Program-made: the position numbers and the translations under genes
In this document: positions 1,308-56,538 of the stretch, piece by piece
How positions within the stretch are numbered: the stretch's first letter is position 1
Layout: the number at the start of each line of letters is the position of its first letter
IMG/VR virus record: IMGVR_UViG_3300020579_000012
Location: 4,946-68,945 of that record
DNA from: a virus
Strand: one strand, 5' to 3'
DNA length: 64,000 nt
Notes under the pieces: model-generated
Database searches by the model: none
What the model saw: the letters and a program-made list of their open reading frames with translations, nothing else
Told to the model about the DNA's origin: nothing

Positions 1308-1640
1308 TTACTCTTCCTCTGACGATTCCTTCGACTCCTTCGGCCGAAAGTCGCTGTGTCGCCTCTGACGTCCGTTGTACTTCCGACGCCACTTCTTCGC
1401 GTCCATGAACGTGACGACGACACGGTCCTCCGGACTGCAAACAGCGATCATAGCGACCCCGAAGACCTTGATCTCATAAAGGGTTCGACCGAAGTTCGTC
1501 TTAACGACCTTCGCTTCGAGGGAGTCCAGCGTCTTTGAGATCTCCGCCTCGGCCTTCATATCCATCAGCAGGCCGATTCTCTTTGCTATCCGAGCCCGCG
1601 CGTGCGGAGAGAACCTCCAACCTTTCGCTTTCAAAGTCAT
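1308..1640 (-). CDS. hypothetical protein (110 aa)
   Basis: ORF-track frame trimmed to ATG 1638-1640; a CGTGTACACG palindrome lies immediately upstream. Confidence 0.55.
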   Translation of the reverse strand: MTLKAKGWRFSPHARARIAKRIGLLMDMKAEAEISKTLDSLEAKVVKTNFGRTLYEIKVFGVAMIAVCSPEDRVVVTFMDAKKWRRKYNGRQRRHSDFRPKESKESSEEE

Positions 1641-1651
1641 CGTGTACACGG
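1640..1651. promoter_or_regulatory. GTGTACAC-core palindrome at a gene junction
   Basis: Minus strand: TGACCGTGTACACGATG (upstream stop, site, downstream start). Confidence 0.5.
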
Positions 1652-1903
1652 TCAGAATGGAATGTCCTCGTCCATCTCCGCCTGAGAGTAGACGAGCTGC
1701 TTCCTACCGACCATCCCCCACACTCCGCGACCCTTCCATCGCCTCTCGAAAGCCGGGAAGACGTTCGACGGTATCGAACAGAAGTCGAACGTCCCGATCG
1801 GGTTCCAGCAGCCTATTACCTCGACGCCAAGCTTCTCGAGCTCCGCCCGGTCGGACTCCTTCGCGCCGATCCAACCCTTGTAGACTAGGATTTCTTTAGG
1901 CAT
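1652..1903 (-). CDS. hypothetical protein (83 aa)
   Basis: Trimmed to ATG 1901-1903 (MPKEILVYKGW..); 8-nt overlap with the upstream gene. Confidence 0.5.
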   Translation of the reverse strand: MPKEILVYKGWIGAKESDRAELEKLGVEVIGCWNPIGTFDFCSIPSNVFPAFERRWKGRGVWGMVGRKQLVYSQAEMDEDIPF

Positions 1904-2213
1904 CTGAAAATTTAAGAGTGAACTTCCCAAGTACAATGAACTGATCCAGCACGCCAAACTTTGTCTCTATGGCGTACGCGGCGCCAACAGGAACCGCAGC
2001 CGTATCGTTCGGCGGCGTCAGAAAACCGCGGCAGATCACTCGACGGTCTGACGATAGAAAAGCAAGGTCGAATGGCTCCGGCACATTCCGGGAGTGGAAA
2101 TAACCTCCCACAGGCGGTCCAACGAAGACGTAGATCGTGTCGTCTGGAATCCGCGGTAGACCTTGAAGCCCGAGCGCTTTCTCCTCCGGAGTCAGTAGCA
2201 CTTTTACATTCAT
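1896..2213 (-). CDS. DUF192-like protein
   Basis: Pattern ..ALGLQGLPRIPDDTIYVF..FHSRNVPEPFDLAFLSSDRRV..AAYAIETKFG matches the DUF192 (COG1430) layout as I remember it. Confidence 0.55.
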   Translation of the reverse strand: MNVKVLLTPEEKALGLQGLPRIPDDTIYVFVGPPVGGYFHSRNVPEPFDLAFLSSDRRVICRGFLTPPNDTAAVPVGAAYAIETKFGVLDQFIVLGKFTLKFSDA

Positions 2214-2326
2214 GATAGTTTGTCTCCGCCAAGTTTTCCGAACGCCGTGATCGACAGAAATGATATCACGCCGGAGACTACGCCGATGAAGGCGAGCGCT
2301 AACAGGACTGGGGACAACAGGATCAT
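2210..2326 (-). CDS. small membrane protein (38 aa)
   Basis: Not in track. MILLSPVLLALAFIGVVSGVISFLSITAFGKLGGDKLS; its stop overlaps the next ATG (ATGA). Confidence 0.4.
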   Translation of the reverse strand: MILLSPVLLALAFIGVVSGVISFLSITAFGKLGGDKLS

Positions 2327-2354
2327 GGTCACTGTGAAACGCACGAAAACCTTC

Positions 2355-2585
2355 CTACCGATCGCAACTAAGATCGAAATACGACGTAGATAGCCATGCC
2401 TTTAAGGAGCATACCATGGTCGGCCGTGGATTTTTAATCATCTCAGCTCTGCTATTTTTCTTCGCAGCGATCGGAGTCACGATGATTCCGCATCCAGAGT
2501 CATGGGCATTCGTCGCGCTGGCGCTCGGAATGGTAGCTGGAAACTGGTCTCCATTCTCCTGGCCTAAGAGAGGTCCGTAGGTCAT
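2355..2585 (-). CDS. hypothetical protein (76 aa); competes with the + strand ORF 2416-2580
   Basis: ATGA overlap with the upstream gene supports it, but the sequence is unremarkable. Confidence 0.3.
   Translation of the reverse strand: MTYGPLLGQENGDQFPATIPSASATNAHDSGCGIIVTPIAAKKNSRAEMIKNPRPTMVCSLKAWLSTSYFDLSCDR
2416..2580 (+). CDS. possible antisense-encoded 2-TM membrane peptide (54 aa)
   Basis: Not in track. AAGGAG sits 6 nt before the ATG; MVGRGFLIISALLFFFAAIGVTMIPHPESWAFVALALGMVAGNWSPFSWPKRGP. Confidence 0.3.
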   Translation: MVGRGFLIISALLFFFAAIGVTMIPHPESWAFVALALGMVAGNWSPFSWPKRGP

Positions 2586-2812
2586 TTCTGCGCTGCCTTA
2601 CGTACCTGTAAAGCCTGAAACTCGACATCTCCGATATCGGAACGCTTGACCCAGACGAACAGGCGATGGTCTGGATCATAGAGGAGCAGCTCGTCCAGGT
2701 TTGCTGGGTACGTGACGCCTTCGGTAATTCCTGATCCGACTACTCGGAAGTGTTCAGCTCTCTCGTACGGACAGCAGCCACCGAGAAGAAGTAGAAGGAC
2801 TAGTTTCTTCAT
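2582..2812 (-). CDS. putative lipoprotein
   Basis: MKKLVLLLLLGGC: signal peptide followed by an L-G-G-C lipobox. Confidence 0.65.
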   Translation of the reverse strand: MKKLVLLLLLGGCCPYERAEHFRVVGSGITEGVTYPANLDELLLYDPDHRLFVWVKRSDIGDVEFQALQVRKAAQK

Positions 2813-2816
2813 ATTC

Positions 2817-2838: not shown

Positions 2839-2843
2839 TAATC

Positions 2844-3131
2844 CTACTTTTCGAGAACCGCCAGGATTGCCCCTTCGATCAAGATCACATACTCCTGACC
2901 TTCGATCTTCACGTCTCCAATAAACTGCTCCGAGAAAAGGACCGTGTCCCCCTTCTTCACGCGAGGCTCAATCAGACGACCGGACTGAAACGCGCCTGGG
3001 CCGACGCCTTCCACGATACCACGATTCACCTTCTCCCGAGCCGCGTCAGGAATCAGAATGCCGCCGGGCGTCTTTTCGTCAGCCTTGAGTCTGCGGACAA
3101 CAATGTGGTCTGCCGTCGGGTTGATCTTCAT
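2844..3131 (-). CDS. groES: co-chaperonin GroES (Cpn10)
   Basis: Trimmed to ATG 3129-3131 (GGAGGA upstream). 95 aa: MKINPTADHIVVRRL..GGILIPDAAREKVNRGIVEGVGPG..GDTVLFSEQ..EYVILIEGAILAVLEK. Confidence 0.85.
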   Translation of the reverse strand: MKINPTADHIVVRRLKADEKTPGGILIPDAAREKVNRGIVEGVGPGAFQSGRLIEPRVKKGDTVLFSEQFIGDVKIEGQEYVILIEGAILAVLEK

Positions 3132-3193: not shown

Positions 3194-3196
3194 CAA

Positions 3197-4945: not shown

Positions 4946-5119
4946 CTATCGCTTTCCGACCTTACTCTTCATGATTGAACCGAGAAGTTTCAGAGTTTCT
5001 TCAATTGTTGTTCGAACGGCTTCCTTCGACACGACGCGATCCTCATCGGTATCGTCGCACGTCCTGCTCTCAGTCCAGCTAACGATGAATCCACCATCTG
5101 CTGGTGAGACTCGAATCAT
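4946..5119 (-). CDS. hypothetical protein (57 aa; start uncertain)
   Basis: Trimmed to MIRVSPADGGF..; the upstream part of the track ORF overlaps the preceding gene. Confidence 0.4.
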   Translation of the reverse strand: MIRVSPADGGFIVSWTESRTCDDTDEDRVVSKEAVRTTIEETLKLLGSIMKSKVGKR

Positions 5120-7541: not shown

Positions 7542-7882
7542 CGGTTCCTCCTCTCGATTCCTCGCCGGACGCGCTTCGCCTCGCGCTCGGCGCCGCGCTC
7601 CGTGTAAGGGCCAGTAATCTTTGTCGCCTCGAGATGCTTATCGAGGACAATCACGGAGAAGTAGCGAGGCTCCTTAAAGCGACAGGAACCATGCTTCCGC
7701 TCATCGTGCGGACAGACCAGCGGAACGACGACGACCGCGGCCGACTTGATCGCGGCCCGCATAAGCGGATCCCGGCGTTTCGTCTTCTGGAAACAACTAC
7801 GACATATCGGACCGAGCTTCTCGTTCTCAACGAGCAGAAGACACTCGCAGGAAAAGCAATAGGACTCCTCGACTTTTTTCAT
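7538..7882 (-). CDS. Cys-rich protein (114 aa)
   Basis: Trimmed to ATG 7880-7882 (ATGA overlap with the integrase stop); CFSCEC..CRSCF. Confidence 0.55.
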   Translation of the reverse strand: MKKVEESYCFSCECLLLVENEKLGPICRSCFQKTKRRDPLMRAAIKSAAVVVVPLVCPHDERKHGSCRFKEPRYFSVIVLDKHLEATKITGPYTERGAEREAKRVRRGIERRNR

Positions 7883-8664
7883 CTCCGAAGCTTCTCGAAA
7901 GTGTTTACGACCTTCTCTTCCCTTGTATGAACGTAGATCTTCGCCAACTCGATCGAAGACCAACGAAGTTGAGACCTAACGTAGTTAAAGTCAGCTCCAG
8001 CAGCGATTAGCCTACTGGCACGGGTATGTCGAAGGATATGGATCAGACCAAATCGGTCTGGCTTTACGATATCTAAAATCCTTTCGAAGATGCTCTGAAG
8101 CGTCCTCTTTGGAATCTTAAAAAGTAGATCATTCGGACCAAACTGCTTCACCCATGTACGCAACTCGTTCGTAAAATCGCTCTTATTGTCAAGATCGACT
8201 GGTAGAAGAGGGTGCCCTGACTTCTTAAGAGTTGGAATCCAAAGGCTCGAAAATGGACCTTTCTTCCAGTCGACGTATTTCGTACGCATTAGCAATGCTT
8301 CGCCACAGCGGCATCCAGTTTCAAGGATAAATCTGATCGTAATTCCAGCCGGATTCTCAATCTTCTTTGTTTCAGCAAGAACCTCCTTGTACTCCTCGTC
8401 GCTAAGATATTTAGTTGAGTCGATTACCGCGTTCGACGACGAAAGAGTTGAGCCCTTCGAATACTTCGATCTACAGCAACCTTCTAAGCATGTGATGAAC
8501 TTGTCACGACGCCCAGCAGACTTCATTATTTTCTGTTTACAGACGTGATTTGGTGATGTGCAGACCTTCGCTCGATCTCCGATATTGTACCGGGCCATGA
8601 ATGATTTCCCACAAATGAAGCAGGTCGAAGGAATCCGGTACTCTGACTTTTCCTTTTTTTTCAT
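7879..8664 (-). CDS. tyrosine recombinase / phage integrase family, with an N-terminal Cys-rich region
   Basis: TGCRCGEALLMR (Arg box), HILRHTRAS (HxxR), LRWSSIELAKIYVHT (catalytic Tyr). Confidence 0.85.
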   Translation of the reverse strand: MKKKEKSEYRIPSTCFICGKSFMARYNIGDRAKVCTSPNHVCKQKIMKSAGRRDKFITCLEGCCRSKYSKGSTLSSSNAVIDSTKYLSDEEYKEVLAETKKIENPAGITIRFILETGCRCGEALLMRTKYVDWKKGPFSSLWIPTLKKSGHPLLPVDLDNKSDFTNELRTWVKQFGPNDLLFKIPKRTLQSIFERILDIVKPDRFGLIHILRHTRASRLIAAGADFNYVRSQLRWSSIELAKIYVHTREEKVVNTFEKLRR

Positions 8665-9314
8665 TTTTTGTGCTCTCGAACGTAGAAGCCGTAATCCTGT
8701 CGCTTCCCGTCGATGTAGGCAAGCTTTGCACAGGCAAGATTGACACAGTAGTTAAAGGAGACTTGATCTCGCTTCGATCCTGACGAAATCTCATCCCACC
8801 AGAGCTCGTTGAAGCGTCGGACCGTATCGTTGTGCCTCCGGATTAGGATATTCGTCTCTCCTAAACCTGCCGCTGCTGGGTATCCGGCCTTTCTTAGTTT
8901 TGTCAAATGATTGACCATCACCAACGGATCTTCCTTCCCTGCGAGAACCGCCGCATTGCCGCCGATATAAACGCAGTCGATTGTCTGGTGACGAAAGAGC
9001 GCAATGTCGTTGTCCGATGTGTACTTCTCAACGAGCGCGCGCAGATCTACGTCGACAGCGTCGATCGCACCGTCTATCCAAACAACGAGTCGATAGTCTT
9101 GTACTGGACTGGCGTGGGACATGACCTTATATAGCCTCGCGTTGCGCGTCAAATCCTTGAGTACAGTCGGAAGGATAACCACCTTCGCCCGGCTCGGCAC
9201 CCTCTTTGGGTAGGAATCCGTAAGAAAAAATACGTCGATATCTTCCCCGAATTCCGGCTCGACGTACGGATCATAATCTCCAAAAATCCCAGTGTACACG
9301 GCAATTTTTTCCAT
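8661..9314 (-). CDS. DUF616-type glycosyltransferase-like protein
   Basis: IAVYTGIFGDYD..VFFLTD..VVWIDGAI..SKRDQVSFNY matches the DUF616 layout as I remember it. Confidence 0.7.
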   Translation of the reverse strand: MEKIAVYTGIFGDYDPYVEPEFGEDIDVFFLTDSYPKRVPSRAKVVILPTVLKDLTRNARLYKVMSHASPVQDYRLVVWIDGAIDAVDVDLRALVEKYTSDNDIALFRHQTIDCVYIGGNAAVLAGKEDPLVMVNHLTKLRKAGYPAAAGLGETNILIRRHNDTVRRFNELWWDEISSGSKRDQVSFNYCVNLACAKLAYIDGKRQDYGFYVREHKK

Positions 9315-9316: not shown

Positions 9317-9865
9317 TTATCGCGGCGGTAAAGGGTTGATCTTCGAAAGAGATTCGTACGACAGCAACTCACCGGCACGTCGACGCGCTTTCAAAAGCAC
9401 GCCCGGCATATTTGGAACATCCTGATCGAGCGTCAGGATCTCCATGTCAACGAAGATCTCACGGAAATGATCCAGCGTGAATCGCCAGTGGTCCTCCGGA
9501 TACGGGTGATACGGGAACCCAGGCGAACGGGTTGTGACGATTAGGAGGCCACCAACCTTCACGACGGCCTTCATCTGGTCTGTAGCCCTTTGCCAAGACT
9601 TGACGTGTTCAAGCATCTCCGTCGAGATGACAACGTCAAACTTTTCCATCCCAAACTCCTGGACGAGCCAGTCGACGCTCACGACCCGGTCGACGCACGG
9701 ACCCATCTGAAAGTCGATGCCCATGTACGAGGCTGGTTTCAACGGCTCAAGGACTTCTCGTGGAGTCCCGTTGACGTTGTAGCTGCCGACCTCCAGGACG
9801 CTCTTGCCGGAGATCTCGTCAGACTTGATCGAACGCTTCAAAAAGTCGATAACCGACGGATGCAT
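9317..9865 (-). CDS. class I SAM-dependent methyltransferase
   Basis: VLEVGSYNVNG (motif I-like) and FDVVISTEMLEHV. Confidence 0.8.
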   Translation of the reverse strand: MHPSVIDFLKRSIKSDEISGKSVLEVGSYNVNGTPREVLEPLKPASYMGIDFQMGPCVDRVVSVDWLVQEFGMEKFDVVISTEMLEHVKSWQRATDQMKAVVKVGGLLIVTTRSPGFPYHPYPEDHWRFTLDHFREIFVDMEILTLDQDVPNMPGVLLKARRRAGELLSYESLSKINPLPPR

Positions 9866-12387: not shown

Positions 12388-12421
12388 TCTGTGCTCCCTT
12401 TTGCAATCGTTCCTACTCGCC

Positions 12422-12625
12422 TTATTCGGAATTACGTACCATCGGAAGATCGTCCAATGGGACTGACTTATGATTCTCCCACTGGATCGAATGCCACACC
12501 CCGTCACCATGAAGTATGGCGTAGTGCGGCGGATCATGGGGCCTCGATCCTTGACACCAAACGAACGCCTCTCCACTCCACGTCCCTTCGACCTTGTACA
12601 CCGAGACGCACCTTTCGTTCAGCAC
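12422..12625 (-). CDS. hypothetical protein (67 aa)
   Basis: GGAGGAGG SD upstream of a GTG/TTG start. Confidence 0.45.
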   Translation of the reverse strand: MLNERCVSVYKVEGTWSGEAFVWCQGSRPHDPPHYAILHGDGVWHSIQWENHKSVPLDDLPMVRNSE

Positions 12626-13618: not shown

Positions 13619-14161
13619 TCAAGACTCTCCCCTCATCGTCTCTTCGTTCAGCTTCTTGACACTGATCTCTCCGCGCGCGAGCTGGCCGAGAAGATCTCCG
13701 CCATGCCGTACACCGTCGTCACGCTGACTCCTCAAGGCCGCCCGCACCGCTAAGTCTAGGCGATCGATCACCTTCCCGGTCGCTGCCGGACCCTTATAGA
13801 CCAGCGCCTTTTCGTAGAACGTGGTGTAGTAGGTTCGCCCACGGGTCTCCGTAGGAAGCGGAGAAACGTCTTTAGCGTAGGCGTCCCGATGAGACTTCGA
13901 CGGAGTCAAAACTCGTCTAGTCAATGCCTGAAACGCCTCAACCATCTCCTTCCTAATCTCGTCATCACGAACGAAGAAGTGGGGCCAGTCTGGAACGAGC
14001 CGGAATAGAGCCTCTTCTTTACTCTCCTCTTTGTGGTCTGCGTCCATCTTGACGGCCCTGCCGAGCGAGAGAAGTTTCGCGCATTCGTCGCAAAGACGAT
14101 CAGCATAGCGCCAACCCTTCTTTCCGCAACCGTGGCAGGGCTTATAAGTTCCGCCGCTCAT
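13619..14161 (-). CDS. hypothetical protein with N-terminal zinc ribbon (180 aa)
   Basis: Trimmed to ATG 14159-14161 (GGAG SD); CHGCGKKGW..CDEC. Confidence 0.6.
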   Translation of the reverse strand: MSGGTYKPCHGCGKKGWRYADRLCDECAKLLSLGRAVKMDADHKEESKEEALFRLVPDWPHFFVRDDEIRKEMVEAFQALTRRVLTPSKSHRDAYAKDVSPLPTETRGRTYYTTFYEKALVYKGPAATGKVIDRLDLAVRAALRSQRDDGVRHGGDLLGQLARGEISVKKLNEETMRGES

Positions 14162-14168
14162 AAAGTCT

Positions 14169-14180
14169 CCGTGTACACGA
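14169..14180. promoter_or_regulatory. GTGTACAC-core palindrome at a gene junction
   Basis: Minus strand: TGATCGTGTACACGGAGACTTTATG. Confidence 0.5.
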
Positions 14181-14252
14181 TCACTTCGCCTTGGAATGCT
14201 CACGGACCTTGACGAGAATCTTCTCGAGGCTCTCTGGCGTCGTCCGAATCAT
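14181..14252 (-). CDS. possible 23-aa peptide
   Basis: Not in track. MIRTTPESLEKILVKVREHSKAK; its stop directly abuts the palindrome site at 14169-14180. Confidence 0.2.
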   Translation of the reverse strand: MIRTTPESLEKILVKVREHSKAK

Positions 14253-17940: not shown

Positions 17941-18075
17941 TCACTTTCTCTTTAGGACGTCCCAATACGGTGTTTTGCACTTGCCACATCTACGTGGATG
18001 AGGGTCTTTGGAATGCCAGACACAGCCCTTCCGTAGACACTTGTGCTCGTACAGCCTGATCGTGATTCTCATCAT
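17941..18075 (-). CDS. zinc-ribbon mini-protein (44 aa), probably translated from a leaderless or near-leaderless mRNA
   Basis: Not in track. MMRITIRLYEHKCLRKGCVWHSKDPHPRRCGKCKTPYWDVLKRK; the ATG lies about 9 nt after the -10 box. Confidence 0.45.
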   Translation of the reverse strand: MMRITIRLYEHKCLRKGCVWHSKDPHPRRCGKCKTPYWDVLKRK

Positions 18076-18083: not shown

Positions 18084-18130
18084 AGTGTACACCATCAGTG
18101 TACACTTGTCAATGTAAAATCACTGTACAC
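18084..18130 (-). promoter_or_regulatory. sigma70-type promoter overlapped by three GTGTACAC-type palindromes
   Basis: Minus strand: GGTGTACAGTGATTTTACATTGACAAGTGTACACTGATGGTGTACACT. -35 TTGACA (18112-18107), 17-nt spacer, -10 TACACT (18089-18084); palindromes at 18085-18092, 18098-18105 and 18123-18130 (one mismatch). Confidence 0.65.
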
Positions 18131-18865: not shown

Positions 18866-19462
18866 TCAGTAGATATAAGCGATCACCTGATCTACCCAAA
18901 TAAGAGCATCTTCCTTCTCCGGATAGAGATTTACAGTCGACTTTACATAGTCGAAATCTCCGCTGTAATGGTTTCCGAAACGACCTACACGTCCAGGCAC
19001 ATTCGGTGCGACCAGCATAGGCGTTCCGACGTTCCCACACAGAATTTCTTTTGATCGCCAGCAGTGTCCGTACGAATGCCTCGGAGAGCAGGCGAGCATC
19101 TTAAAGAGATGTGGACGGGTCGGGTTCTCAGAAACGACCTGACGGATACTGTCGATTGCCCCTGGAGAATATGTGTCGTCGTCGTCCATTACGACGACAT
19201 GGCTACCGAAAGCCTTCTCAAGGCCTACGTTTTTCTGGGCCTGTCCGACCATCTTAGTGACCGGTCCAACTGTGAATTTAGAATCGATCCAACGCCTGTA
19301 GAAATCGAGGATCTTCTCTGCTTCCGGAGACGGACCATCACTGATGACGAGCAGCTCATCGACATTCTTACGGAATCCGTTGTCGATGATGCTGCGGATC
19401 GTCTGCTGAAGCGTCGGACGTCCGACCGTCGGAACTATGATAGATAGCCTGATTTCGCTCAA
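18866..19462 (-). CDS. glycosyltransferase family 2
   Basis: TTG start overlapping the upstream stop (TTGA); LSIIVPTVGRPTLQQTIRSI..VVVMDDDDTYSPGA. Confidence 0.75.
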   Translation of the reverse strand: MSEIRLSIIVPTVGRPTLQQTIRSIIDNGFRKNVDELLVISDGPSPEAEKILDFYRRWIDSKFTVGPVTKMVGQAQKNVGLEKAFGSHVVVMDDDDTYSPGAIDSIRQVVSENPTRPHLFKMLACSPRHSYGHCWRSKEILCGNVGTPMLVAPNVPGRVGRFGNHYSGDFDYVKSTVNLYPEKEDALIWVDQVIAYIY

Positions 19463-21177
19463 GGCTGTACCTCGATCAATCTGTTTGTAATAAGTTCTGC
19501 GGTAATATCCCATGTCATCCGACTCATCCGCACCTGTAGTCGTTCCGTTCGCTCACGAACCTCTCGACCTCCGGAGTGGACAGTTCTGATAAGCTCAGCG
19601 AGGGCACGCCGGGCTCTGGCACCATAGCGCGGCCAGTCCATGTCGACGTACCACGGAGAAACGGACTCCGCTTCCGGACACTTCGATATACCGTCTTTCT
19701 CAAACATCCAGGCATCCTCCCCGAGAACGTCTGGATTCGCACTGTTCCTAGGAACGATGATAGGCTTACCGCAGGCCGCCCCTTCGTGGGATGGGAGCCC
19801 CCAGCCTTCACCAAGACTAGCCGATACGATAGCGTCCGACGACGAGTAGATCTCTGCCATCTGCGTATCCGTGAACTTCCCTTCAAGGATCCAGACGCGC
19901 GTCTTCAGATTTGCGAGCTTGTCGTGAATCCTAGACGACCAAGATCCAGGAGCGTGCGTCGTTGCGATCACGAAGTCGACGTCGGATTTCTTCGGAAACG
20001 CCAGTTCGATCGCCTCCGCGATAAACTCAAAATTCTTCCGGCGGGAAGGTAGTCCGACCGCCAGTGCAATCCAGCCGGACGGGGATCTGTAGTTTCCTCT
20101 TTTCGAGGTCGAGACGAGACGGCATTCAGGGAATGCTATTTTCTTCAAAGGTTTGAAAATTGCTGGATTTATTCCGAGCGGAACCACTCTTGTCGGGATC
20201 CGGACGCCGGAACCGACAAAGGCGCTCTTCCCCCAGTTCGTACACGTCCATAATTCCGAGTACCGAGAATTGATCTTCTCAACCATATCTCGGTGTACAC
20301 GATCAGTCTCCATTAGCGTGTAGCAGATCGAGAATCGATCTTTCTGCGGCTCGTGATCTGGCCCAAAAATCCTTAGGATCGGCGCTTTCGGGCCTATCAA
20401 CGTCGACTGGAATGATTCGACTTTAGTTCTTGTGTACTCGTCAACGAGTATCGCCTCCTTGGAATCTGATTCGATCCGAACAGCCAAACTATTTGCTATC
20501 CGGAATAGGATCTCGCGATTAAGGCGACCGTATGATGCCCAGGATAGGAAGTGTCCTGACTGCAGAACCTCAGGAAAATTAGACTTTTTGTAGACATGCT
20601 TTAGAGCTGTAGATTCAACCGGCTTAGGTTTAGGAGGTTCATAGGTAACAGCTGGAAGCGACTGAACGCTTCCGAACCGCACGACCGCGTCGGATTCCGG
20701 GATGAACGACTCGGCGTGCCAGCGCCATGTCGGCGGCAGGAACAGGAAGGAGGTCTCCCGCGTCTCGGTCAGGGCGATACAGAGATTAACGTCCTCCTTG
20801 CCTGGATACGCGGCGTTCCGCTGGACCCAGCGGTCGAGTAGGCGCCGAGCACCCGTCGTCGGCCGGACGAGGATCGTCTCGAGCGAGACTACTCCGATCC
20901 CGTCGAACTGCCGAGGGGTCGTCGGCGTCGAGCCGATCCGGTCGACGTAGGCTGCGACGTCGAAGTCCTTCGAGCGCAGCCGCTCCAAGACCGGTGCGGT
21001 CCAGACGCGGGCCCCAGGCTGGACGAACAGGAACCCGTCCCGCTCGATCGTGAAGCGGCCGAGTGCGTCCAGGAACGCGTCAGCCGGGGACGGCCCGCGT
21101 GCGAGCGCGCAGATCGTGATGCCTTTCACGTGACCGACGAGCGGCGACGGGGCACCCTTGAAGGTGACGACGATCAT
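19459..21177 (-). CDS. two-domain glycosyltransferase (unknown N-terminal domain plus GT1/GT4-type C-terminal domain)
   Basis: ..SASLGEGWGLPSHEGAACGKPIIVPRNSANPDVLGE.. Confidence 0.8.
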   Translation of the reverse strand: MIVVTFKGAPSPLVGHVKGITICALARGPSPADAFLDALGRFTIERDGFLFVQPGARVWTAPVLERLRSKDFDVAAYVDRIGSTPTTPRQFDGIGVVSLETILVRPTTGARRLLDRWVQRNAAYPGKEDVNLCIALTETRETSFLFLPPTWRWHAESFIPESDAVVRFGSVQSLPAVTYEPPKPKPVESTALKHVYKKSNFPEVLQSGHFLSWASYGRLNREILFRIANSLAVRIESDSKEAILVDEYTRTKVESFQSTLIGPKAPILRIFGPDHEPQKDRFSICYTLMETDRVHRDMVEKINSRYSELWTCTNWGKSAFVGSGVRIPTRVVPLGINPAIFKPLKKIAFPECRLVSTSKRGNYRSPSGWIALAVGLPSRRKNFEFIAEAIELAFPKKSDVDFVIATTHAPGSWSSRIHDKLANLKTRVWILEGKFTDTQMAEIYSSSDAIVSASLGEGWGLPSHEGAACGKPIIVPRNSANPDVLGEDAWMFEKDGISKCPEAESVSPWYVDMDWPRYGARARRALAELIRTVHSGGREVRERTERLQVRMSRMTWDITAELITNRLIEVQP

Positions 21178-21461: not shown

Positions 21462-21736
21462 CTAACCTCCAATTCGTGTGCAACGACCGACGCAAGGTCC
21501 TCGATGGTCTCCGGATGCGACGGGAGCGGAGCATCAAGTTCCAAAAGGATGTGGATTAATTTTCCTTCGACCGGAAAGACGGCGGACTTGTTCCAGTCGA
21601 GCGGCCAGCCGGTGAACCGCTCGTTCGTATCAAGGTCCTGAAGACACCAGGAGCAGAGGAAGCAGACCGGCCTTCGAGCCAGCAGCAGCTCCCGAAGCGC
21701 CGAGGACATTTCTATTTGTCGAAGGACTTCGCCCAT
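21446..21736 (-). CDS. hypothetical protein (96 aa)
   Basis: ORF track. Confidence 0.5.
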   Translation of the reverse strand: MGEVLRQIEMSSALRELLLARRPVCFLCSWCLQDLDTNERFTGWPLDWNKSAVFPVEGKLIHILLELDAPLPSHPETIEDLASVVAHELEVRCQRN

Positions 21737-21954
21737 TTCTCCCTCGCTTCCGTCTCACGTGCAATGATCGTATCCTTGAGGCGACGAGCTTCCTCGATCT
21801 GAGGTGTCGTTGCCTCGCCATCGACGACCTTTCGAAGGAGCCTCGAGTACCTCGCCCGAATCCGGTCAAGCTCGGTCCAACCGCGATCACCGCGACGTCG
21901 CTGCGGCAACGGACCGAATATATCGGATGTCTTTTTACGTCCTGTTTCGCCCAT
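21712..21954 (-). CDS. hypothetical protein (80 aa)
   Basis: Trimmed to ATG 21952-21954, preceded by GAGGAGG and the palindrome TCGTGTACACGA. Confidence 0.5.
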   Translation of the reverse strand: MGETGRKKTSDIFGPLPQRRRGDRGWTELDRIRARYSRLLRKVVDGEATTPQIEEARRLKDTIIARETEAREKWAKSFDK

Positions 21955-21965
21955 ATCACACCTCC

Positions 21966-21977
21966 TCGTGTACACGA
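21966..21977. promoter_or_regulatory. GTGTACAC-core palindrome at a gene junction (perfect 12-mer)
   Basis: Minus strand: TGATCGTGTACACGAGGAGGTGTGATATG. Confidence 0.5.
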
Positions 21978-22217
21978 TCAGTTCTCATCCCGATCGATAC
22001 CGTACTGGTCGCACATTTTATGGAGCGTGTCGAGCTGTCGTTGGGTCAACGGTCTCTTGTCGATCTGGAGTTGATCGAGAATGCTCTGAAGGAATCCAGC
22101 CTCCCAGGTATTCAGGTCATCCTCCATAACGTCGAGCGCCTTGGCGAGTGCGAGCTGGCGCTCCAACGTTTCGTTGAAAGCTCGGTCAATGTCGCCAAAT
22201 GGATTCTCAGCGGACAC
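21978..22217 (-). CDS. hypothetical protein (79 aa)
   Basis: Trimmed to GTG 22215-22217 with AGGAGG 6 nt upstream. Confidence 0.5.
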   Translation of the reverse strand: MSAENPFGDIDRAFNETLERQLALAKALDVMEDDLNTWEAGFLQSILDQLQIDKRPLTQRQLDTLHKMCDQYGIDRDEN

Positions 22218-29093: not shown

Positions 29094-29121
29094 AGTATAG
29101 CACGAGACGGAGCCCTGTCAA
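29094..29121 (-). promoter_or_regulatory. sigma70-type promoter TTGACA-16-TATACT (leftward)
   Basis: Minus strand: TTGACA (29121-29116), 16-nt spacer, TATACT (29099-29094). Confidence 0.65.
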
Positions 29122-29156
29122 TGTGAAAAAGAACGAATATTCAGATCGGAAAACGC

Positions 29157-29184
29157 TTGCCTTATTGGCCGGTGCTCATAATAA
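29157..29184 (+). promoter_or_regulatory. candidate rightward promoter TTGCCT-16-TAATAA
   Basis: TTGCCT (29157-29162), TAATAA (29179-29184); overlaps the dyad GGTGC-N12-GCACC (29171-29192); an ATG lies at 29197. Confidence 0.4.
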
Positions 29185-29196
29185 TAAGCACCATAG

Positions 29197-29451
29197 ATGG
29201 GTCGCCCACTTAAAGCAACACTGCCGATCAGTTTGAAGTGTCCTCTCAGCGGTGCGCTGATCGGTTCGAAAGCCTTCGACGAGCACTTTGCGAACGCCTA
29301 TTCGGCGAAAAGCGGTCAGTCCGTCTACGTCCTCTGCTATCCACACGGCTTCCAGGGATTTATCAATAACCCTACTATCGTGGAGCTCGTCAATGCCGAA
29401 GCGGAAAAAGCTCGAGTCCGATCAGCCTCAGCCACTCCTCGACCCCACTGA
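29197..29451 (+). CDS. small hypothetical protein (84 aa), possibly near-leaderless
   Basis: ORF track; MGRPLKATLPISLK..; overlaps the start of the next gene, so one of the two starts must be wrong. Confidence 0.35.
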   Translation: MGRPLKATLPISLKCPLSGALIGSKAFDEHFANAYSAKSGQSVYVLCYPHGFQGFINNPTIVELVNAEAEKARVRSASATPRPH

Positions 29452-31470: not shown

Positions 31471-31785
31471 ATGGCGCATCTCGAGAATATTCCAAGTCAG
31501 ACTGTAATTCTTGACCAGATCGAGGACCTCTTTCGGCAGTCACTTGCCTTCAGTGGTCGGATCATCGGCGAGTTCTCGAAGTCTCATGGTTTTAGTGAAT
31601 CTGAAACCAAGGACCTCATACTCGCAGCCGGTCCGCTTATCGCAACGGACTATTTGAAGCAGGTAACGGGTGTCGCACAGATCATCGAACGGGCAAACCA
31701 GAGTCAGATCGATGATATGGTGGACTCCATGGAGAAGATCCTCGTCGATATCCGCAAGAGGAACAAGCTGACAGACACGGCCTGA
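31471..31785 (+). CDS. hypothetical protein (104 aa)
   Basis: ORF track. Confidence 0.55.
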   Translation: MAHLENIPSQTVILDQIEDLFRQSLAFSGRIIGEFSKSHGFSESETKDLILAAGPLIATDYLKQVTGVAQIIERANQSQIDDMVDSMEKILVDIRKRNKLTDTA

Positions 31786-31790
31786 ACTGA

Positions 31791-31802
31791 CCGTGTACAC
31801 GG
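31791..31802. promoter_or_regulatory. GTGTACAC-core palindrome at a gene junction (perfect 12-mer, + strand operon)
   Basis: TGAACTGACCGTGTACACGGAGAATTTTCGAGATG. Confidence 0.5.
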
Positions 31803-31814
31803 AGAATTTTCGAG

Positions 31815-32138
31815 ATGCCTCCTGATGAACAGGACGTCCAGATCCGCGCTCAGCGTGCGGCATTTATAAAGGCCTTTCAGGATATTTCCGTTGCGACGGC
31901 GAATCTTGCTGCGATCTCGAAGAAGCAGATCGAGCTCATGAACGCTATGATCGACACGGCGACTGGCCTAGCTGCTACGGTTATGGAACCGAAGGATGGT
32001 CTCCGAGATGTGATCGATGAGTTGATCGAAGAGATCAACGGGCTTCGGGGAGACATTCGACTCATCGCGAAGGCAGGCGGCATGAACGGAGTGCTCGCGG
32101 CGCTCTTTTCCGGCGTGCGCGGACGGAAGGGTGGCTGA
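31815..32138 (+). CDS. hypothetical protein (107 aa)
   Basis: ORF track; short hydrophobic C-terminus followed by RGRKGG. Confidence 0.55.
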   Translation: MPPDEQDVQIRAQRAAFIKAFQDISVATANLAAISKKQIELMNAMIDTATGLAATVMEPKDGLRDVIDELIEEINGLRGDIRLIAKAGGMNGVLAALFSGVRGRKGG

Positions 32139-32139
32139 T

Positions 32140-32289
32140 GTGCGATTCTTTCGTTGGATCCGGCAGACGCTATGCGGCCTGCGTGGTCGTCATGATCCGC
32201 ATACCGAAAATGTCGCCGCGCTTTGGGGGCGGACGCGCTGGTGCCGGGTCTGTCGGCGCTGTGGAAAGGTTCTCGAGATTTTATAATTC
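32140..32289 (+). CDS. possible zinc-ribbon peptide (49 aa)
   Basis: Not in track. GTG start overlapping TGATG; ..WCRVCRRCGKVLEIL; a competing ATG frame runs 32138-32311. Confidence 0.25.
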
Positions 32290-32298
32290 ACATTTCGT

Positions 32299-32327
32299 TT
32301 GACAAACGGGTCTTCTTATCGCAAACT
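32299..32327 (+). promoter_or_regulatory. candidate promoter TTGACA-17-CAAACT
   Basis: Perfect -35 box, weak -10 box; upstream of the Com-like gene. Confidence 0.35.
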
Positions 32328-32420
32328 CTGACTTAGATGATTCGGCGGATCACCCGAACTGGGTGGACAAGCCGCGCGGCGTGAAGACGCTACGCGGCTT
32401 GCTTCGTTGAGAGACGAAAG

Positions 32421-32603
32421 ATGCCTGAGAGCAGCACGGTTGGTGGGGACCTTCGGTGTCCGGCCTGCGCGAACTGGATCCTGAGAGGATGGTTCGAGGG
32501 TGGGTTGAACCTGAAGTGCGGCAACAAGAGATGTGCCGCGCAGCTCCGAGTGGAGATGCGATCCGGGAAGCCGACGATCACCGTGCTCTCGACAAAAAAG
32601 TAG
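32421..32603 (+). CDS. Com-like zinc-ribbon protein (60 aa)
   Basis: DLRCPACANWILRGWFEGGLNLKCGNKRCAAQLRV follows the Mu Com-family pattern (RC..C..L..g.l.iKC..C). Confidence 0.5.
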   Translation: MPESSTVGGDLRCPACANWILRGWFEGGLNLKCGNKRCAAQLRVEMRSGKPTITVLSTKK

Positions 32604-32720
32604 GCGGATCGCCCGTCCTGGGCGGACAGCCTGGAGAAATCCAGGGAGCGCAATGCGCTGTTCGCTCGGTACAACCGAACGTAACCTGCACCTCCAGCTT
32701 AACTTAGTTCCTTCTTCTTC

Positions 32721-32754
32721 GAGGGGGCTCAGTTCCTCCATACTGAGCCCCCTC
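32721..32754 (+). other. perfect 12-bp hairpin in the leader of gene 32781
   Basis: GAGGGGGCTCAG-ttcctccata-CTGAGCCCCCTC; the loop carries CCUCC; no U-tract. Confidence 0.5.
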
Positions 32755-32780
32755 GCCCCATACACCGTCGGAGCCTCTCG

Positions 32781-54667: not shown

Positions 54668-54675
54668 GGTGATCC

Positions 54676-55152
54676 TTGGCACTCAGAAAACCGCTCGTCT
54701 TCAACGGCGGCATCCAGCAGCTCCAGAGTGGAGACACCCTGGATGCCGCACGGTCCGATTCATCCGGTCTGATCCAGACGAACGACAACGTCGGCGCAAT
54801 GATCGCCGGACAGGTCGTATACAACGACGCGAACGACGGCGTCAAGAGCGCGAAGGCTGACGCCAGCGCGACGAAGGACGTCGTCGGTCTGATGCTCGAC
54901 ACTCCGGCGGCGGCCGGAACCGGCTTCGTCGCTATGAGCGGACCGGTCACGTTGACGACCGCGCAATGGGATGCGGTCTTCGGGACGTCCGGAGGACTGA
55001 CAAAGGGAACTCGCTACTACCTGTCGGCAACATCCGCCGGTCAGGGTCAGGCTGGTGCCCCAACCACCGTGGGACAGTATGTCGTCGAACTCGGTATCGC
55101 CATTTCGACGACCGAGCTGATGCTTGCGATCAGGAGCCCGATCCTCCTTTGA
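54676..55152 (+). CDS. small beta-rich structural protein, paralog of 54233-54667
   Basis: Ends ..LMLAIRSPILL; shares the G..V..G.A.S/T..L.I.SPIL pattern. Confidence 0.55.
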   Translation: MALRKPLVFNGGIQQLQSGDTLDAARSDSSGLIQTNDNVGAMIAGQVVYNDANDGVKSAKADASATKDVVGLMLDTPAAAGTGFVAMSGPVTLTTAQWDAVFGTSGGLTKGTRYYLSATSAGQGQAGAPTTVGQYVVELGIAISTTELMLAIRSPILL

Positions 55153-55370
55153 GCGACAAGAAGCCTCTTGTCCTGGGGACCGATCCGTCGAGCGGTGCGG
55201 TTCAGATGCAGCAGATTCAGCCGTGCGATCAGGTTAACCCGGCCTCGCTCCCGTTCGATCGGGAGACGAATTTGCGTAGGCTCTTTCGTGTCCTGATTCG
55301 AGATCTGATGAGCATTGGATTCCCTGTGTCTCAGGAATTGATCGACGAAGCCTCTAAGCAAGGATACTGA
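55149..55370 (+). CDS. hypothetical protein (73 aa; TTG start)
   Basis: TTGA overlap with the upstream stop. Confidence 0.4.
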   Translation: MSDKKPLVLGTDPSSGAVQMQQIQPCDQVNPASLPFDRETNLRRLFRVLIRDLMSIGFPVSQELIDEASKQGY

Positions 55371-55371
55371 C

Positions 55372-56136
55372 ATGGCAAACTTCACAGCGATCGTACGAGG
55401 GATAGCGCAGCGCGTCCTCGCGATCACATCGCCGACCCCGGACGGAACGGAGACACCGAACGGAGTCCGTACTGGGAGATTCAACGAACTATTCTCGCTG
55501 AATCTCTGGGCAAAACAGCACGGCCTCGCGGACGAGGAGTCGTCCTTTGTGATGTCCGGAACGCTCGGCACCGGAGTCGCAACGATCGCTGCGCTCACGG
55601 GGCTTGTCGATACATCTCCTTTTATCATTGCGAAGAATATTGCTGATCCGTCAACCGGGATCCGGTCCTATCTCGACCTCTTGAAGCTCATCTGCACGGT
55701 GGCCGGGACAGCAGGGACGGCGCTTCGATACGGGGTCAAAGTCGGACCGAGTCGACAAGACCCGACCGGAATGGACGCTGCATTCAACCCGACTCTGGCG
55801 GCACCGACCGGCGTTCCACAAAACGTCCAGGCGTCCAGCCAGAGGCAGTCGATCCTGCGCGTCTATGCCGGGGCGCTCGTTGCACCGGCCGCTCAGGGCG
55901 GTACGCGCCAGCTTGGGGGAGGTCTCCTGAAGAGCGCAATCCCCGTCGCCAACGACCAATACATCATCAACTTCGGCGGAATCGATCCGGCCGCGCCTGC
56001 AACCCAGGTCGATAGGAACGACGCGCATCCTTCGGTGGTAATCCCTCCCGGCTACTCCGCGTTCATACACATTTGGCTCCCCTCGCAGTCTGCGGCCTCG
56101 AGCTACGAGATTCAACTCCATCATCACGAAAGATAG
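55372..56136 (+). CDS. structural protein (254 aa), fold unknown
   Basis: ORF track; last large late ORF. Confidence 0.6.
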   Translation: MANFTAIVRGIAQRVLAITSPTPDGTETPNGVRTGRFNELFSLNLWAKQHGLADEESSFVMSGTLGTGVATIAALTGLVDTSPFIIAKNIADPSTGIRSYLDLLKLICTVAGTAGTALRYGVKVGPSRQDPTGMDAAFNPTLAAPTGVPQNVQASSQRQSILRVYAGALVAPAAQGGTRQLGGGLLKSAIPVANDQYIINFGGIDPAAPATQVDRNDAHPSVVIPPGYSAFIHIWLPSQSAASSYEIQLHHHER

Positions 56137-56139
56137 ATC

Positions 56140-56538
56140 GTGACCAGAGTCGAAGTCCTCTTCGATCTCATCCGGACACAGGCGTCGCTCCGGTTCCCCT
56201 GGATCGCCCAGGTCAAGGTGAAGTTCTGTCCGATGGCCGACCGGGATCACGGGATGAAATGGCGCCAGTTCGCCCATACAAATCATCGCGTGTACACGGT
56301 CTGTTTCGCGAAGGCGGCCGAGATCGAACTCTTCGACGAGGAGGTCCTCGGGATGTCGGCGCACGAGCTGGGGCATATCGTCGGGAAGCGTCTTCGATAC
56401 CCGGAGCACTCGCGGCCGACGACGACGAAGAGGACCCCCAAGGCCGTCCAGGACGAGGCCGACAGGATCGCCCAGGAGGTCCTTGGGTTCGACGGCCTTC
56501 ACTACAACCACCGGACGCTCCAGGAGCTTAGAGGATAG
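56140..56538 (+). CDS. small HEXXH metallopeptidase-like protein
   Basis: ..GMSAHELGHIVGK.. Confidence 0.6.
   Translation: MTRVEVLFDLIRTQASLRFPWIAQVKVKFCPMADRDHGMKWRQFAHTNHRVYTVCFAKAAEIELFDEEVLGMSAHELGHIVGKRLRYPEHSRPTTTKRTPKAVQDEADRIAQEVLGFDGLHYNHRTLQELRG

Follow-up and report, generated by a model that had tools for sequence, protein, structure and literature searches.

The core palindrome analyzed here has its nearest described counterpart in the operators of Phd/YefM-type regulators. The phd-doc operator of phage P1 reads TATAAT-T-GTGTACAC-ATAAC-GAGTACAC-GAGG..ATG, and in the yefM-yoeB operators of E. coli, TGTACA cores lie 12 bp apart and overlap the -10 (PMC4803016). Sites dispersed over a genome are known from mycobacteriophage L5, where a site that is 13 bp long and fully asymmetric occurs more than 20 times and is bound by a monomeric repressor with a helix-turn-helix and a stoperator domain (PMC9283540). 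The Cluster K start-associated sequences (SAS/ESAS) are short repeated motifs in a single orientation that directly precede the start codons of some genes, mostly non-structural ones, and sometimes include the upstream stop codon; they are conserved across subclusters beside genes of different families, and their function has only been proposed (PMC3203893). The non-palindromic SAS (GGGATAGGAGCCC) is the ribosome-binding site itself, at a distance of 3-7 bp from the start codon (PMC3203893).

We analyzed a 64,000-nt stretch (the window; positions 4,946 to 68,945 of IMGVR_UViG_3300020579_000012) of an uncharacterized soil virus of ~68.5 kb. All nine exact copies of GTGTACAC listed in the initial annotation were confirmed (1642, 9292, 14171, 18085, 18098, 20293, 21968, 31793, and 56290), and a tenth lies just outside, 3.6 kb past the left end of the window (L037:15863). 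The claimed over-representation survived Markov backgrounds, with 0.3-1.4 copies expected in the window (0.29-1.37 under orders 1-5) against nine observed; in 100 dinucleotide-preserving shuffles the mean count was 0.38 and the highest was 2. The order-6 expectation of 5.8 is uninformative because its 7-mers derive from the GTGTACAC sites themselves. Under an order-3 model, GTGTACAC ranked first among all 8-mers in the window (18 counts on both strands versus 0.94 expected, P about 2e-17), and the 10-mer CGTGTACACG was found five times versus 0.03-0.07 expected. Six of the nine copies lie at junctions or in non-coding DNA, which amounts to about 10-17% of the window based on our own gene calls. 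One-mismatch variants were not enriched in the window (eight found). Two of them look real, namely CTGTACAC at 18123, which adjoins the double site 18085/18098, and an intergenic copy whose membership in the site set is uncertain:

12594..12601, minus strand: one-mismatch copy GTGTACAA (minus strand) / TTGTACAC, in the 238-nt intergenic gap 12388-12625

The GTGTACAC sites fall into two classes, single copies within an extended motif (class I) and a promoter cluster (class II). The latter is located at 18.1 kb:

18084..18130, minus strand: class II cluster, three core copies over a sigma70-like promoter
17941..18075, minus strand: basic zinc-ribbon ORF of 44 aa (MMRITIRLYEHKC...), first gene under the site-bearing promoter

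Two exact copies (18085-18092 and 18098-18105) are spaced 13 bp centre to centre, and a third with one mismatch, GTGTACAG (18123-18130), follows 25 bp further upstream. Beneath them lies an operon-internal promoter at 18112..18084, composed of TTGACA (18112..18107), a 17-nt spacer and TACACT (18089..18084), which was also recovered by a consensus scan. Centred near -12, -25, and -50, the sites cover the -10, the spacer/-35, and the region around -50. Two of the three copies are upstream of the likely transcription start and therefore cannot act on that promoter's own mRNA. The ATG of the zinc-ribbon ORF, which has no Pfam family match, is only 8 nt downstream of the -10 hexamer, so its mRNA is probably leaderless. 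Homologous zinc-ribbon ORFs follow the conserved promoter in two relatives (L001 and L002), and the equivalent promoters of c0003 (TTGACA-N17-TACCAT) and c5575 (TTGACA-N16-TATAAT) carry no sites. The -10 of the window virus, TACACT, accommodates a site, as against TACCAT or TATAAT in the relatives; site gain in the window virus would be the pattern one expects if an existing promoter had been brought under a new regulator.

This cluster has the same core and the same 13-bp centre-to-centre tandem spacing as the P1 phd-doc operator and, in line with Phd/YefM operators, its sites overlap or adjoin the -10 of the promoter and the Shine-Dalgarno sequence. On an unrelated IMG/VR viral contig, GTGTACAC-N5-GTGTACAC stands directly upstream of a PhdYeFM gene (Pfam threshold passed, E = 4.8e-11). 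Tandem GTGTACAC pairs occur in 16 IMG/VR stretches, about the chance frequency by a rough estimate, so pairing is not specific in itself. Known Phd/YefM operators consist of a single local pair serving autoregulation of the toxin-antitoxin operon to which it belongs, whereas this virus has about 10 copies over 68 kb, mostly single and with long asymmetric flanks, and the gene behind the tandem sites is the zinc-ribbon ORF. No toxin was detected in the genome. Likewise, phmmer, Pfam (108 ORFs), NCBIfam, and local hhalign revealed no Phd/YefM or ribbon-helix-helix protein in the complete genome (hhalign probabilities all ≤5.4% versus 99.7% for the positive control), nor did precomputed Pfam matches covering the 4.8 kb beyond the window. 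Among helix-turn-helix proteins, a weak LacI-type headpiece (62501-62803) is the sole sequence-specific candidate, and nothing connects it with the motif. The INPHARED phage collection contains no matches to this virus, and its primase shares <35% identity with that of any deposited phage. It encodes a tyrosine integrase (Xer/integron-like tyrosine recombinase, 7879-8664; best NCBIfam matches to XerA and integron-integrase models) and no RNA polymerase or sigma-factor family in 108 ORFs (Pfam and NCBIfam among the searches); it is thus probably temperate, dependent on the host polymerase, and in need of silencing long operons.

The remaining copies comprise four class I junction sites and three copies inside genes:

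1634..1660, minus strand: junction site ttCTGACC-GTGTACAC-GATGACTTT; its TGA is the stop of gene 1652..1903
14161..14190, minus strand: junction site GAAGTGATC-GTGTACAC-GGAGACTTTATGA, upstream of the 180-aa zinc-ribbon gene 13619..14161
21960..21987, minus strand: junction site gagaaCTGATC-GTGTACAC-GAGGAGGtgtgatATG; its TGA is the stop of gene 21978..22217
31786..31817, plus strand: junction site aaCTGACC-GTGTACAC-GGAGAAttttcgagATG, in the rightward arm between genes 31471..31785 and 31815..32138
20293..20307, minus strand: class I-type site ACTGATC-GTGTACAC, inside the 572-aa glycosyltransferase gene 19459..21177
56290..56297, minus strand: core copy with flank cAGACC, oriented leftward, in the last rightward gene 56140..56538 (codons R-V-Y-T)
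9292..9299, minus strand: core copy in codons 6-8 (A-V-Y-T) of the glycosyltransferase-like gene 8661..9314

The initial annotation had reported four copies of an extended form, TGA(T/C)CGTGTACACG(A/G), at 1640, 14169, 21966, and 31791, lying behind the stop codon of the preceding gene. Core and extended sequence are correct, but the TGA at 31793 is not the upstream gene's stop, which lies 5 nt earlier, and a fifth copy, at 20293, shares the 5' extension (ACTGATC). The conserved motif is also longer than described, being an asymmetric, oriented element of ~25 nt (aaCTGAyC-GTGTACAC-GnnGActTy) that abuts or includes the Shine-Dalgarno sequence and the start codon. It occupies stop-to-start junctions, N-terminal codons and, through synonymous codon choice, one intragenic position. 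The core falls within the first codons or 1-25 nt ahead of the start codon in at least eight gene contexts: 9 nt separate it from the ATG at 14171, site 21968 precedes gene 21712..21954, and the 110-aa gene downstream of 1642 (public-collection call) starts at an ATG 1 nt past the core or at a GTG within it. Six of seven oriented sites point in the direction of the local gene, a bias that is weak by itself (about P = 0.06). The seventh (56290), antisense to its gene and about 240 nt from the convergence point of two transcription units, points along leftward read-through across that point. Site 20293, at residues T-D-R-V-H, is formed by particular codon choices (R-V-H is CGT GTA CAC in the window versus AGA GTT CAT in the c5575 homologue). 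That a site with the full 5' extension is codon-made and lies within a gene, far from any gene start, speaks for function residing in the DNA or RNA sequence itself rather than in a ribosome-binding context.

Conservation in relatives had been proposed as a check, and relatives with protein identities of just 48-65% do keep the junction sites at corresponding positions. In c5575 (L002:13339, with TAA as the stop), L012, L013, and L015, the equivalent of 21968 is located ~0.7-1 kb past the primase gene; c0003 lacks it. At 14171, a 30-nt block spanning the Shine-Dalgarno sequence, the spacer, and the ATG is invariant across the window, L036, and c5575 (L042), although L036 has a different gene upstream and c5575 a different one downstream. 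One flanking gene is also replaced beside the retained motif at 1642 (c270) and 21968 (L013, L015). At 31793, CTGACCGTGTACACGG is invariant in c5575 and c270 inside a variable spacer with insertions and deletions. Site 1642 is kept in c270 (L060:5433), where ATGACCGTGTACAC encodes the N-terminus M-T-V-Y-T, and 56290 recurs there as well (L008:13840); L010 has no RVYT codons and carries a core copy ~150 nt further on, intergenic at the convergence point.

Similar to L5 stoperators, a single motif occupies both a promoter and short intergenic gaps within operons, with its orientation following the direction of transcription; L5 is a temperate phage relying on host RNA polymerase (PMC9283540), as the window virus probably is. 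It differs in its palindromic core, which has no sequence similarity to the L5 site, in that no such repressor was detected, and in being an unrelated virus. With Cluster K SAS/ESAS the motif shares location, a single orientation, the in-motif stop codon, and conservation beside differing genes; here, however, the core stands upstream of the Shine-Dalgarno sequence at variable distance, and its further occurrences include a triplet on a promoter and one copy within a gene. The conserved inverted repeats (CIRs) bound by the phiC31 repressor comprise an autoregulating operator and, spread over the phage genome, highly conserved intergenic copies; this likeness is a lead only.

Judged from sequence, the GTGTACAC sites are most likely candidate binding sites for one regulatory protein. 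The reading that fits best, with a probability of roughly 0.45, treats them, as the initial annotation had suggested, as dispersed operators and roadblocks that act on DNA, and likens them to the L5 stoperators. Promoter-overlapping copies, the Phd/YefM-like core and spacing, orientation, and the retention of sites despite 35-50% protein divergence and swapped flanking genes all favor it, and the core, a perfect 8-10-bp palindrome, looks suited to recognition in double-stranded DNA by a symmetric dimer. Against it stand the searches that found no binding protein, the ten sites compared with far more (>20) in L5, and c5575, which has class I sites and lacks class II sites at the homologous promoter. 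Moreover, a symmetric dimer does not account for the asymmetric ~25-nt class I motif; an mRNA-level function would, and the long flanks by ribosome-binding sites fit such a role about equally well.

The main rival, which we consider rather unlikely, accordingly places the function at gene starts in the transcript, where an RNA-binding protein or endoribonuclease would recognize the oriented 22-25 nt UGAYCGUGUACACGGAGACUUY and set translation initiation or processing of selected cistrons, the palindrome being incidental. Cluster K start-associated sequences, for which such a role has been proposed, and T4 RegA/RegB provide the models. The motif's asymmetry and co-orientation with genes, its proximity to start codons, the invariant block at 14171, and the TGA kept at 31793 where it is no stop codon speak for this, as do several small basic zinc-ribbon proteins of the virus that could be RNA binders. 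Cluster K start-associated sequences follow the same logic of location and orientation (PMC3203893). Such a role leaves unexplained the two promoter copies upstream of the transcription start, which lack the flanks, as well as the intragenic site 20293 and the antisense site 56290. A core-to-start distance ranging from 1 nt (or overlap) to 25 nt is a poor fit for a ribosome-positioning element, RNA folding around 12 sites gave no consistent fold and Rfam no match, and a perfect 8-10-nt palindrome is unexpected in a single-stranded RNA site. It is improbable that class I motifs are compact promoters for the host polymerase with a virus-encoded factor or alternative sigma factor, each marked gene receiving its own transcript from a start at or just past the motif. 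T7-type promoters have a similar layout to this contiguous, oriented ~22-nt element just upstream of a purine-rich start region. Some copies have GAAC 15-16 nt upstream of (C/A)GAC, loosely resembling ECF sigma-factor promoters, and a small protein (58474-58647) appears from its sequence to resemble zf-HC2 anti-sigma factors. However, the 108 ORFs contain no polymerase or sigma-factor family, no sigma70 -35/-10 pair surrounds the junction sites, and the virus uses ordinary TTGACA/TATAAT promoters elsewhere. The best-conserved part, the central palindrome, would occupy the ECF promoter spacer, and a -10-like role would put the start after the Shine-Dalgarno sequence in several copies, including 14171.

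We give little credence to the motif as a module boundary, serving as crossover point or linker for gene-module exchange between related viruses, or as the target of a virus-encoded nuclease, nickase, or recombinase. The replacement of one-side genes at 14171, 1642, and 21968, the partial 18-bp dyad of the extended motif (symmetric at positions +/-1, +/-2, and +/-5), and two candidate enzymes, the Xer/integron-like recombinase and a strongly matching HNH endonuclease (61420-61914; phrog_374, 4e-56), point in this direction. Yet no cassette is flanked by two motif copies, the motif is unlike an integron attC site or GTTRRRY, mosaic breakpoints are expected beside any conserved regulatory sequence, and the triple site on the promoter is left unexplained. 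Ten self-targets for a cutting enzyme would harm the virus. The modification or nicking target proposed in the initial annotation finds no backing, though with the HNH gene present it may still apply: GTAC is not avoided (217 observed versus 121-202 expected), no DNA methyltransferase family was found, and oriented copies occur on both strands, unlike in T5-type phages, whose nick sites lie on one strand. That the copies are functionless by-products of V-Y-T codons (GTG TAC AC) and base composition is scarcely credible. Copies 9292 (AVYT), 56290 (RVYT), and L011:7398 (PVYT) are in-frame V-Y-T codons, and c0003 has the same peptide as the window at 9292 (MEKIAVYT) without a site because GTC replaces GTG; 9292 may thus be a by-product of coding sequence. 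For junction and promoter copies this explanation is already contradicted by an enrichment of about 20-fold under every informative background, the location of six of the nine copies, conserved flanks, and retention at matching positions inside variable spacers, so it could apply only to 9292 and perhaps 56290.

Under the operator and roadblock reading, GTGTACAC would be the core recognition sequence of one putative sequence-specific DNA-binding protein, encoded by either the virus or its host and probably a small dimer that, in the manner of Phd/YefM-type or ribbon-helix-helix-type regulators, reads a short palindrome. Cooperative binding at the three 18.1-kb sites would block initiation of the downstream operon, beginning with the leaderless zinc-ribbon gene. 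The single, higher-information class I sites (aaCTGAyC-GTGTACAC-G...) lie at gene boundaries along the leftward unit of 41 kb and where the rightward unit begins. Protein bound to them would hinder RNA polymerase arriving by read-through from upstream, acting in an orientation-dependent manner as a roadblock or local brake. Such roadblocks would split the long operons of this virus into separately controlled segments, as with the stoperators of mycobacteriophage L5.

The octamer palindrome GTGTACAC (the core) is present in nine exact copies in the window (1642, 9292, 14171, 18085, 18098, 20293, 21968, 31793 and 56290), precisely where the initial annotation had placed them, and a tenth lies 3.6 kb past the left end of the window (position 15863 of L037, a contig identical to the window virus). 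The over-representation claimed there survived the Markov control proposed with it: models of orders 1–5 predict only 0.29–1.37 copies against the nine observed, and dinucleotide-preserving shuffles of the window averaged 0.38 copies and never exceeded 2. The order-6 expectation of 5.8 mirrors only the 7-mers that these sites supply. No other 8-mer of the window is as over-represented as GTGTACAC under an order-3 model, and CGTGTACACG occurs five times against 0.03–0.07 expected. Because one-mismatch variants appear only at chance-level frequency, selection acts on the exact core. TGTACA is contained in 9/9 window copies. Restriction-site avoidance was rejected, as GTAC is not depleted in the window and GTGTACAC is enriched instead; candidate methyltransferases or nucleases were limited to a generic SAM-dependent methyltransferase (9317–9865) and an HNH endonuclease (61420–61914).

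The metagenomic contig from which the 64-kb window comes is 68,831 bp long. Together, L037 (100% identical) and L036 (98% identical, circularly permuted) close a circle at ~68.5 kb, with leftward genes running from ~29 kb through position 1 and round to 56.5 kb, and rightward genes between 29.4 and 56.5 kb. Among the genes that could be recognised are a primase, helicase, tyrosine integrase, GroES, HNH endonuclease, SAM-dependent methyltransferase and several glycosyltransferases. Searches that included Pfam and NCBIfam on 108 ORFs detected no capsid, portal, terminase, RNA polymerase or sigma-factor family among the virus genes, and no tRNA genes were found in the virus sequence. The large rightward genes (29393–56538; 685, 550, 988, 380 and 445 aa, among others) matched no Pfam or PHROG structural family, and this virus is perhaps not a conventional tailed phage. 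INPHARED contained no nucleotide match to the window, and a primase search of GTDB genomes returned no relatives; those found are all soil-type metagenome contigs with primase identities of 54–83%.

Several further features were recorded. The viral GroES co-chaperonin (2844–3131) was matched at E of about 1e-25, and the tyrosine recombinase (7879–8664) has XerA and integron-integrase models as its best NCBIfam matches. A 57-aa protein (58474–58647) shows, by sequence reading only, an anti-sigma-factor-like zinc-binding pattern, H-x3-C-x2-C. At 63612–64000, the 15-nt unit CAGGTCGGCACCGCG is repeated ~26 times (93% matches) in a tandem array that extends to the window end, nearly to the contig end; it lies inside an ORF, where it would encode a 5-aa repeat, and L036 has a different 125-aa gene at this position.

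Class I sites are single core copies embedded in a longer oriented motif, aaCTGAyC-GTGTACAC-GnnGActTy, obtained from an alignment of 14 oriented instances from six genomes, in which information reaches well past the core. Those in short spaces inside operons are the junction sites:

1642, with the ATG beginning 1 nt past the core end
14171, 21968, 31793 and L037:15863, with 9–25 nt from the core end to the start codon

The TGA of the motif frequently terminates the upstream gene, is retained though not a stop at 31793, L003:6122 (on another contig) and 20293 (out of frame), and is exchanged for TAA or TAG at two sites in relatives. The extended motif has no symmetry, in contrast to its perfectly palindromic core, and runs parallel to the gene that holds or follows it in 6 of 7 oriented copies, a bias that taken alone gives P ~0.06. 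Elsewhere the core serves as N-terminal codons (M-T-V-Y-T in the related virus c270, V-Y-T in the relative L015 and MEKIAVYT at 9292). Site 20293 lies within a 572-aa glycosyltransferase gene, in which a conserved R-V-H is encoded as CGT GTA CAC after ACT GAT, recreating ACTGATCGTGTACAC, while a relative uses AGA GTT CAT. Site 56290 is antisense within the last rightward gene, ~240 nt away from where the two transcription directions converge, and c270 has it as well; the relative L010 lacks the codons of this site, yet has a copy in the adjoining intergenic region.

Conservation of the junction sites, the other check attached to the earlier claim, was borne out at the post-primase site, 14171 and 31793. 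The post-primase site (21968) is found again in the related virus c5575 and in L012, L013 and L015 despite differing small neighbour genes. Around 14171, three genomes share the 30-nt block GAAGTGATCGTGTACACGGAGACTTTATGA without change, with the upstream gene swapped in L036 and the downstream gene swapped in c5575, and at 31793 CTGACCGTGTACACGG is invariant amid a spacer rich in insertions and deletions. In the related virus c0003, sites were absent across the 43 kb sampled. The extended 19-nt pattern was found in 24 IMG/VR stretches, of which four belong to this virus family (L042, L050, L056 and L060), while the remainder are in coding DNA and appear to match by chance; a search for a host or prophage with the 19-nt motif gave four matches, all in unrelated coding DNA.

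Three further copies, one of them with a mismatch, form the class II cluster over a sigma70-like promoter (18112..18084):

18130–18084, minus strand, class II cluster, GTGTACAG-N17-GTGTACAC-N5-GTGTACAC over TTGACA-N17-TACACT
18075–17941, minus strand, 44-aa zinc-ribbon ORF with its ATG 8 nt past the -10 hexamer of this promoter

The copies at 18085 and 18098 overlap the promoter and are spaced 13 bp centre to centre. The counterpart promoters, TTGACA-N17-TACCAT in c0003 and TTGACA-N16-TATAAT in c5575 (ATG likewise 8 nt on), also come with a zinc-ribbon ORF and contain no GTGTACAC. As the promoter is shared without the sites, the window virus has gained three copies on a conserved internal promoter, and one of these supplies its -10. 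In both the window and c5575 the gene starts 8 nt after the -10, which points to leaderless mRNAs in this virus and its host.

A second dispersed junction motif, unrelated to GTGTACAC, consists of a stop codon (TAG/TAA), 0–4 nt, GCACAGAA, N8 and GAGTGC(C), and is oriented with leftward transcription:

3187, 3856, 4742, 5817, 7304, 12388, 12852 and 57067, minus strand, window
10712 and 59527, plus strand, window, variants
2269, 7419, 8071, 8613, 12666 and 18733, in L011, another contig

Its GGCAC and GTGCC could form a 5-bp stem. The motif is also found in c0003, where it additionally forms complete inverted repeats, GGCACAGAA-N6-TTCTGTGCC, and one such repeat adjoins a TTGACA. We had considered that a different motif replaces GTGTACAC in the site-less c0003, which would point to immunity groups co-evolving; since the window also has GCACAGAA-N8-GAGTGC, this motif is a separate system and no replacement.

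The two arms are separated by a divergent promoter region (29094–29192) that contains no GTGTACAC, and the rightward operon has a 643-nt gap (32139–32780) that is also present in relatives:

29121..29094, minus strand, arm promoter, TTGACA-N16-TATACT with upstream TG
29157–29185, plus strand, arm promoter, TTGCCT-N17-AATAAT
32421–32603, in the gap, 60-aa zinc-ribbon ORF (CPAC...CGNKRC)
32305..32278, in the gap, antisense promoter-like site, TTGTCA-N16-TAAAAT

The -10 of the plus-strand arm promoter sits in the inverted repeat GGTGCT-N10-AGCACC (29171–29192), which could be a separate operator. Just after this promoter, an 84-aa ORF (29197–29451) overlaps the out-of-frame start of the 685-aa gene (29393–31450), where a frameshift is possible. 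The 60-aa ORF resembles Mu Com but gave only a weak zinc-finger match in Pfam.

The class II arrangement resembles operators of the Phd/YefM type. The sequence of the P1 phd-doc control region is TATAAT-T-GTGTACAC-ATAAC-GAGTACAC-GAGGTGTTT-ATG, and GTGTACAC equals the perfect phd-doc site; octamer and 13-bp spacing are the same as in the window, and phd-doc likewise abuts the Shine-Dalgarno sequence. In E. coli yefM-yoeB, operators with TGTACA cores lie 12 bp apart and overlap the -10, according to a review (PMC4803016). Two features of such operators, a TGTACA-core palindrome and two neighbours 12–13 bp centre to centre at a promoter -10, are present in the window. Scanning IMG/VR for GTGTACAC-N5-GTGTACAC returned 16 stretches, about the number expected by chance on our own rough estimate. 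One tandem pair is directly upstream of a gene above the Pfam PhdYeFM threshold, that in stretch L021 belongs to a five-site array behind TTGACT and before an ORF with a Phd-like N-terminus (by eye), and others precede ribbon-helix-helix-like ORFs (weak RHH_5 match). The P1, yefM-yoeB and IMG/VR cases point to short palindromes in 13-bp tandem as typical operators of small dimeric regulators.

Phd/YefM operators, which a Phd/YefM dimer binds with the toxin acting as co-repressor, lie upstream of a phd/yefM-toxin pair that they autoregulate, whereas the window cluster precedes the 44-aa zinc-ribbon ORF. The PhdYeFM, Doc and YoeB families were not detected by Pfam (108 ORFs), phmmer, hhalign or precomputed Pfam for the rest of the genome. 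Likewise, neither a Phd/YefM nor a ribbon-helix-helix protein turned up in phmmer with three seeds, in Pfam and NCBIfam on 108 ORFs, in two regular-expression screens, among six candidate small proteins compared with Pfam at E up to 1, or among precomputed Pfam matches for the 4.8 kb beyond the window. When seed profiles were aligned with 124 proteins by hhalign, the top probability was 5.4%, compared with 99.7% for the positive control. A virus-encoded binding protein of these types was therefore rejected. The sole helix-turn-helix candidate is a 100-aa protein (62501–62803, minus strand), 79% conserved in c270, which comprises little beyond a LacI/CcpA-type DNA-binding headpiece and weakly matches LacI-family structures and Pfam LacI, HTH_3 and HTH_24. 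A virus without its own binding protein might instead use Phd/YefM-type operators to exploit a host toxin-antitoxin repressor complex as a dispersed repressor and roadblock, which we regard as highly unlikely. Antitoxins are labile and undergo degradation during stress or abortive-infection responses. If this host-antitoxin reading were true, antitoxin loss would free the internal promoter and the read-through blocks, and viral expression or prophage induction would be tied to the host toxin-antitoxin defence state. The operator match offers a testable tie between viral gene control and toxin-antitoxin regulators.

For dispersed operators or roadblocks, the model is the mycobacteriophage L5 stoperator, an asymmetric site oriented with transcription whose 13-bp consensus is related to GGTGGMTGTCAAG and at which bound repressor halts elongating RNA polymerase depending on orientation. 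Both systems place one motif at a promoter (18084–18130 in the window) and in short intra-operon intergenic spaces. The boundary location fits stoperator logic (PMC9283540), as may the orientation, which is mostly shared with transcription. The window virus differs in its sequence, which is unrelated to GGTGGMTGTCAAG, and in its copy number of about 10, against more than 20 in L5 (PMC9283540). An L5-type repressor (monomeric, helix-turn-helix plus stoperator domain) was not recognised in searches of libraries that hold no stoperator-domain profile. The main rival is an mRNA-level gene-start element. Like the start-associated sequence (SAS) of Cluster K mycobacteriophages, GTGTACAC sites have one orientation, lie mostly before non-structural genes and are kept across relatives beside different gene families, and their long asymmetric flanks beside ribosome-binding sites fit SAS logic (PMC3203893), which keeps an mRNA-level role alive. 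The SAS, however, is a 13-bp element that contains the Shine-Dalgarno core and lies 3–7 bp before the start codon, whereas the GTGTACAC core is apart from the Shine-Dalgarno sequence, 1–25 nt before the start or in the first codons, with one copy gene-internal. A shared RNA structure was rejected, as RNAfold on 88-nt windows at 12 sites gave no common fold and Rfam no match. The promoter cluster, the palindromic core, the lack of a shared RNA fold and the codon choice at the gene-internal site lead us to favour a putative DNA-level protein-binding site.

Weaker candidates are the promoter, enzyme-target, recombination-linker and chance explanations. T7-type, ECF sigma-factor-type and T4-late-type promoter models were ruled out by geometry and by the lack of a polymerase or sigma-factor gene, and integron attC-like cassette boundaries by the lack of paired sites around cassettes. 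Just outside the window, a 468-aa ORF (L037:11676–13082) resembles, by eye, an FtsK/HerA-type ATPase with a C-terminal winged helix; KOPS-like polar sequences for such an ATPase would leave the junction location unexplained. The literature found for GTGTACAC concerned unrelated uses only, such as primers and a Plasmodium AP2-G motif. The operator or roadblock role suggested initially gains from the promoter cluster, the boundary location and, more weakly, the mostly transcription-parallel orientation, and loses from the binding protein not found in our searches; we hold it tentatively, at a probability of about 45%.

GTGTACAC provides a concrete handle for finding the regulator and helps delimit transcription units in a nearly unannotated genome, and the invariance of the 30-nt block where adjoining genes were swapped cleanly exemplifies a regulatory sequence outlasting mosaic recombination. 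If the sites are dispersed operators or roadblocks, stoperator-like silencing of long operons would extend beyond Cluster A mycobacteriophages to a deeply divergent soil virus family whose structural genes match no known families, where the motif is unrelated and the protein presumably so too.
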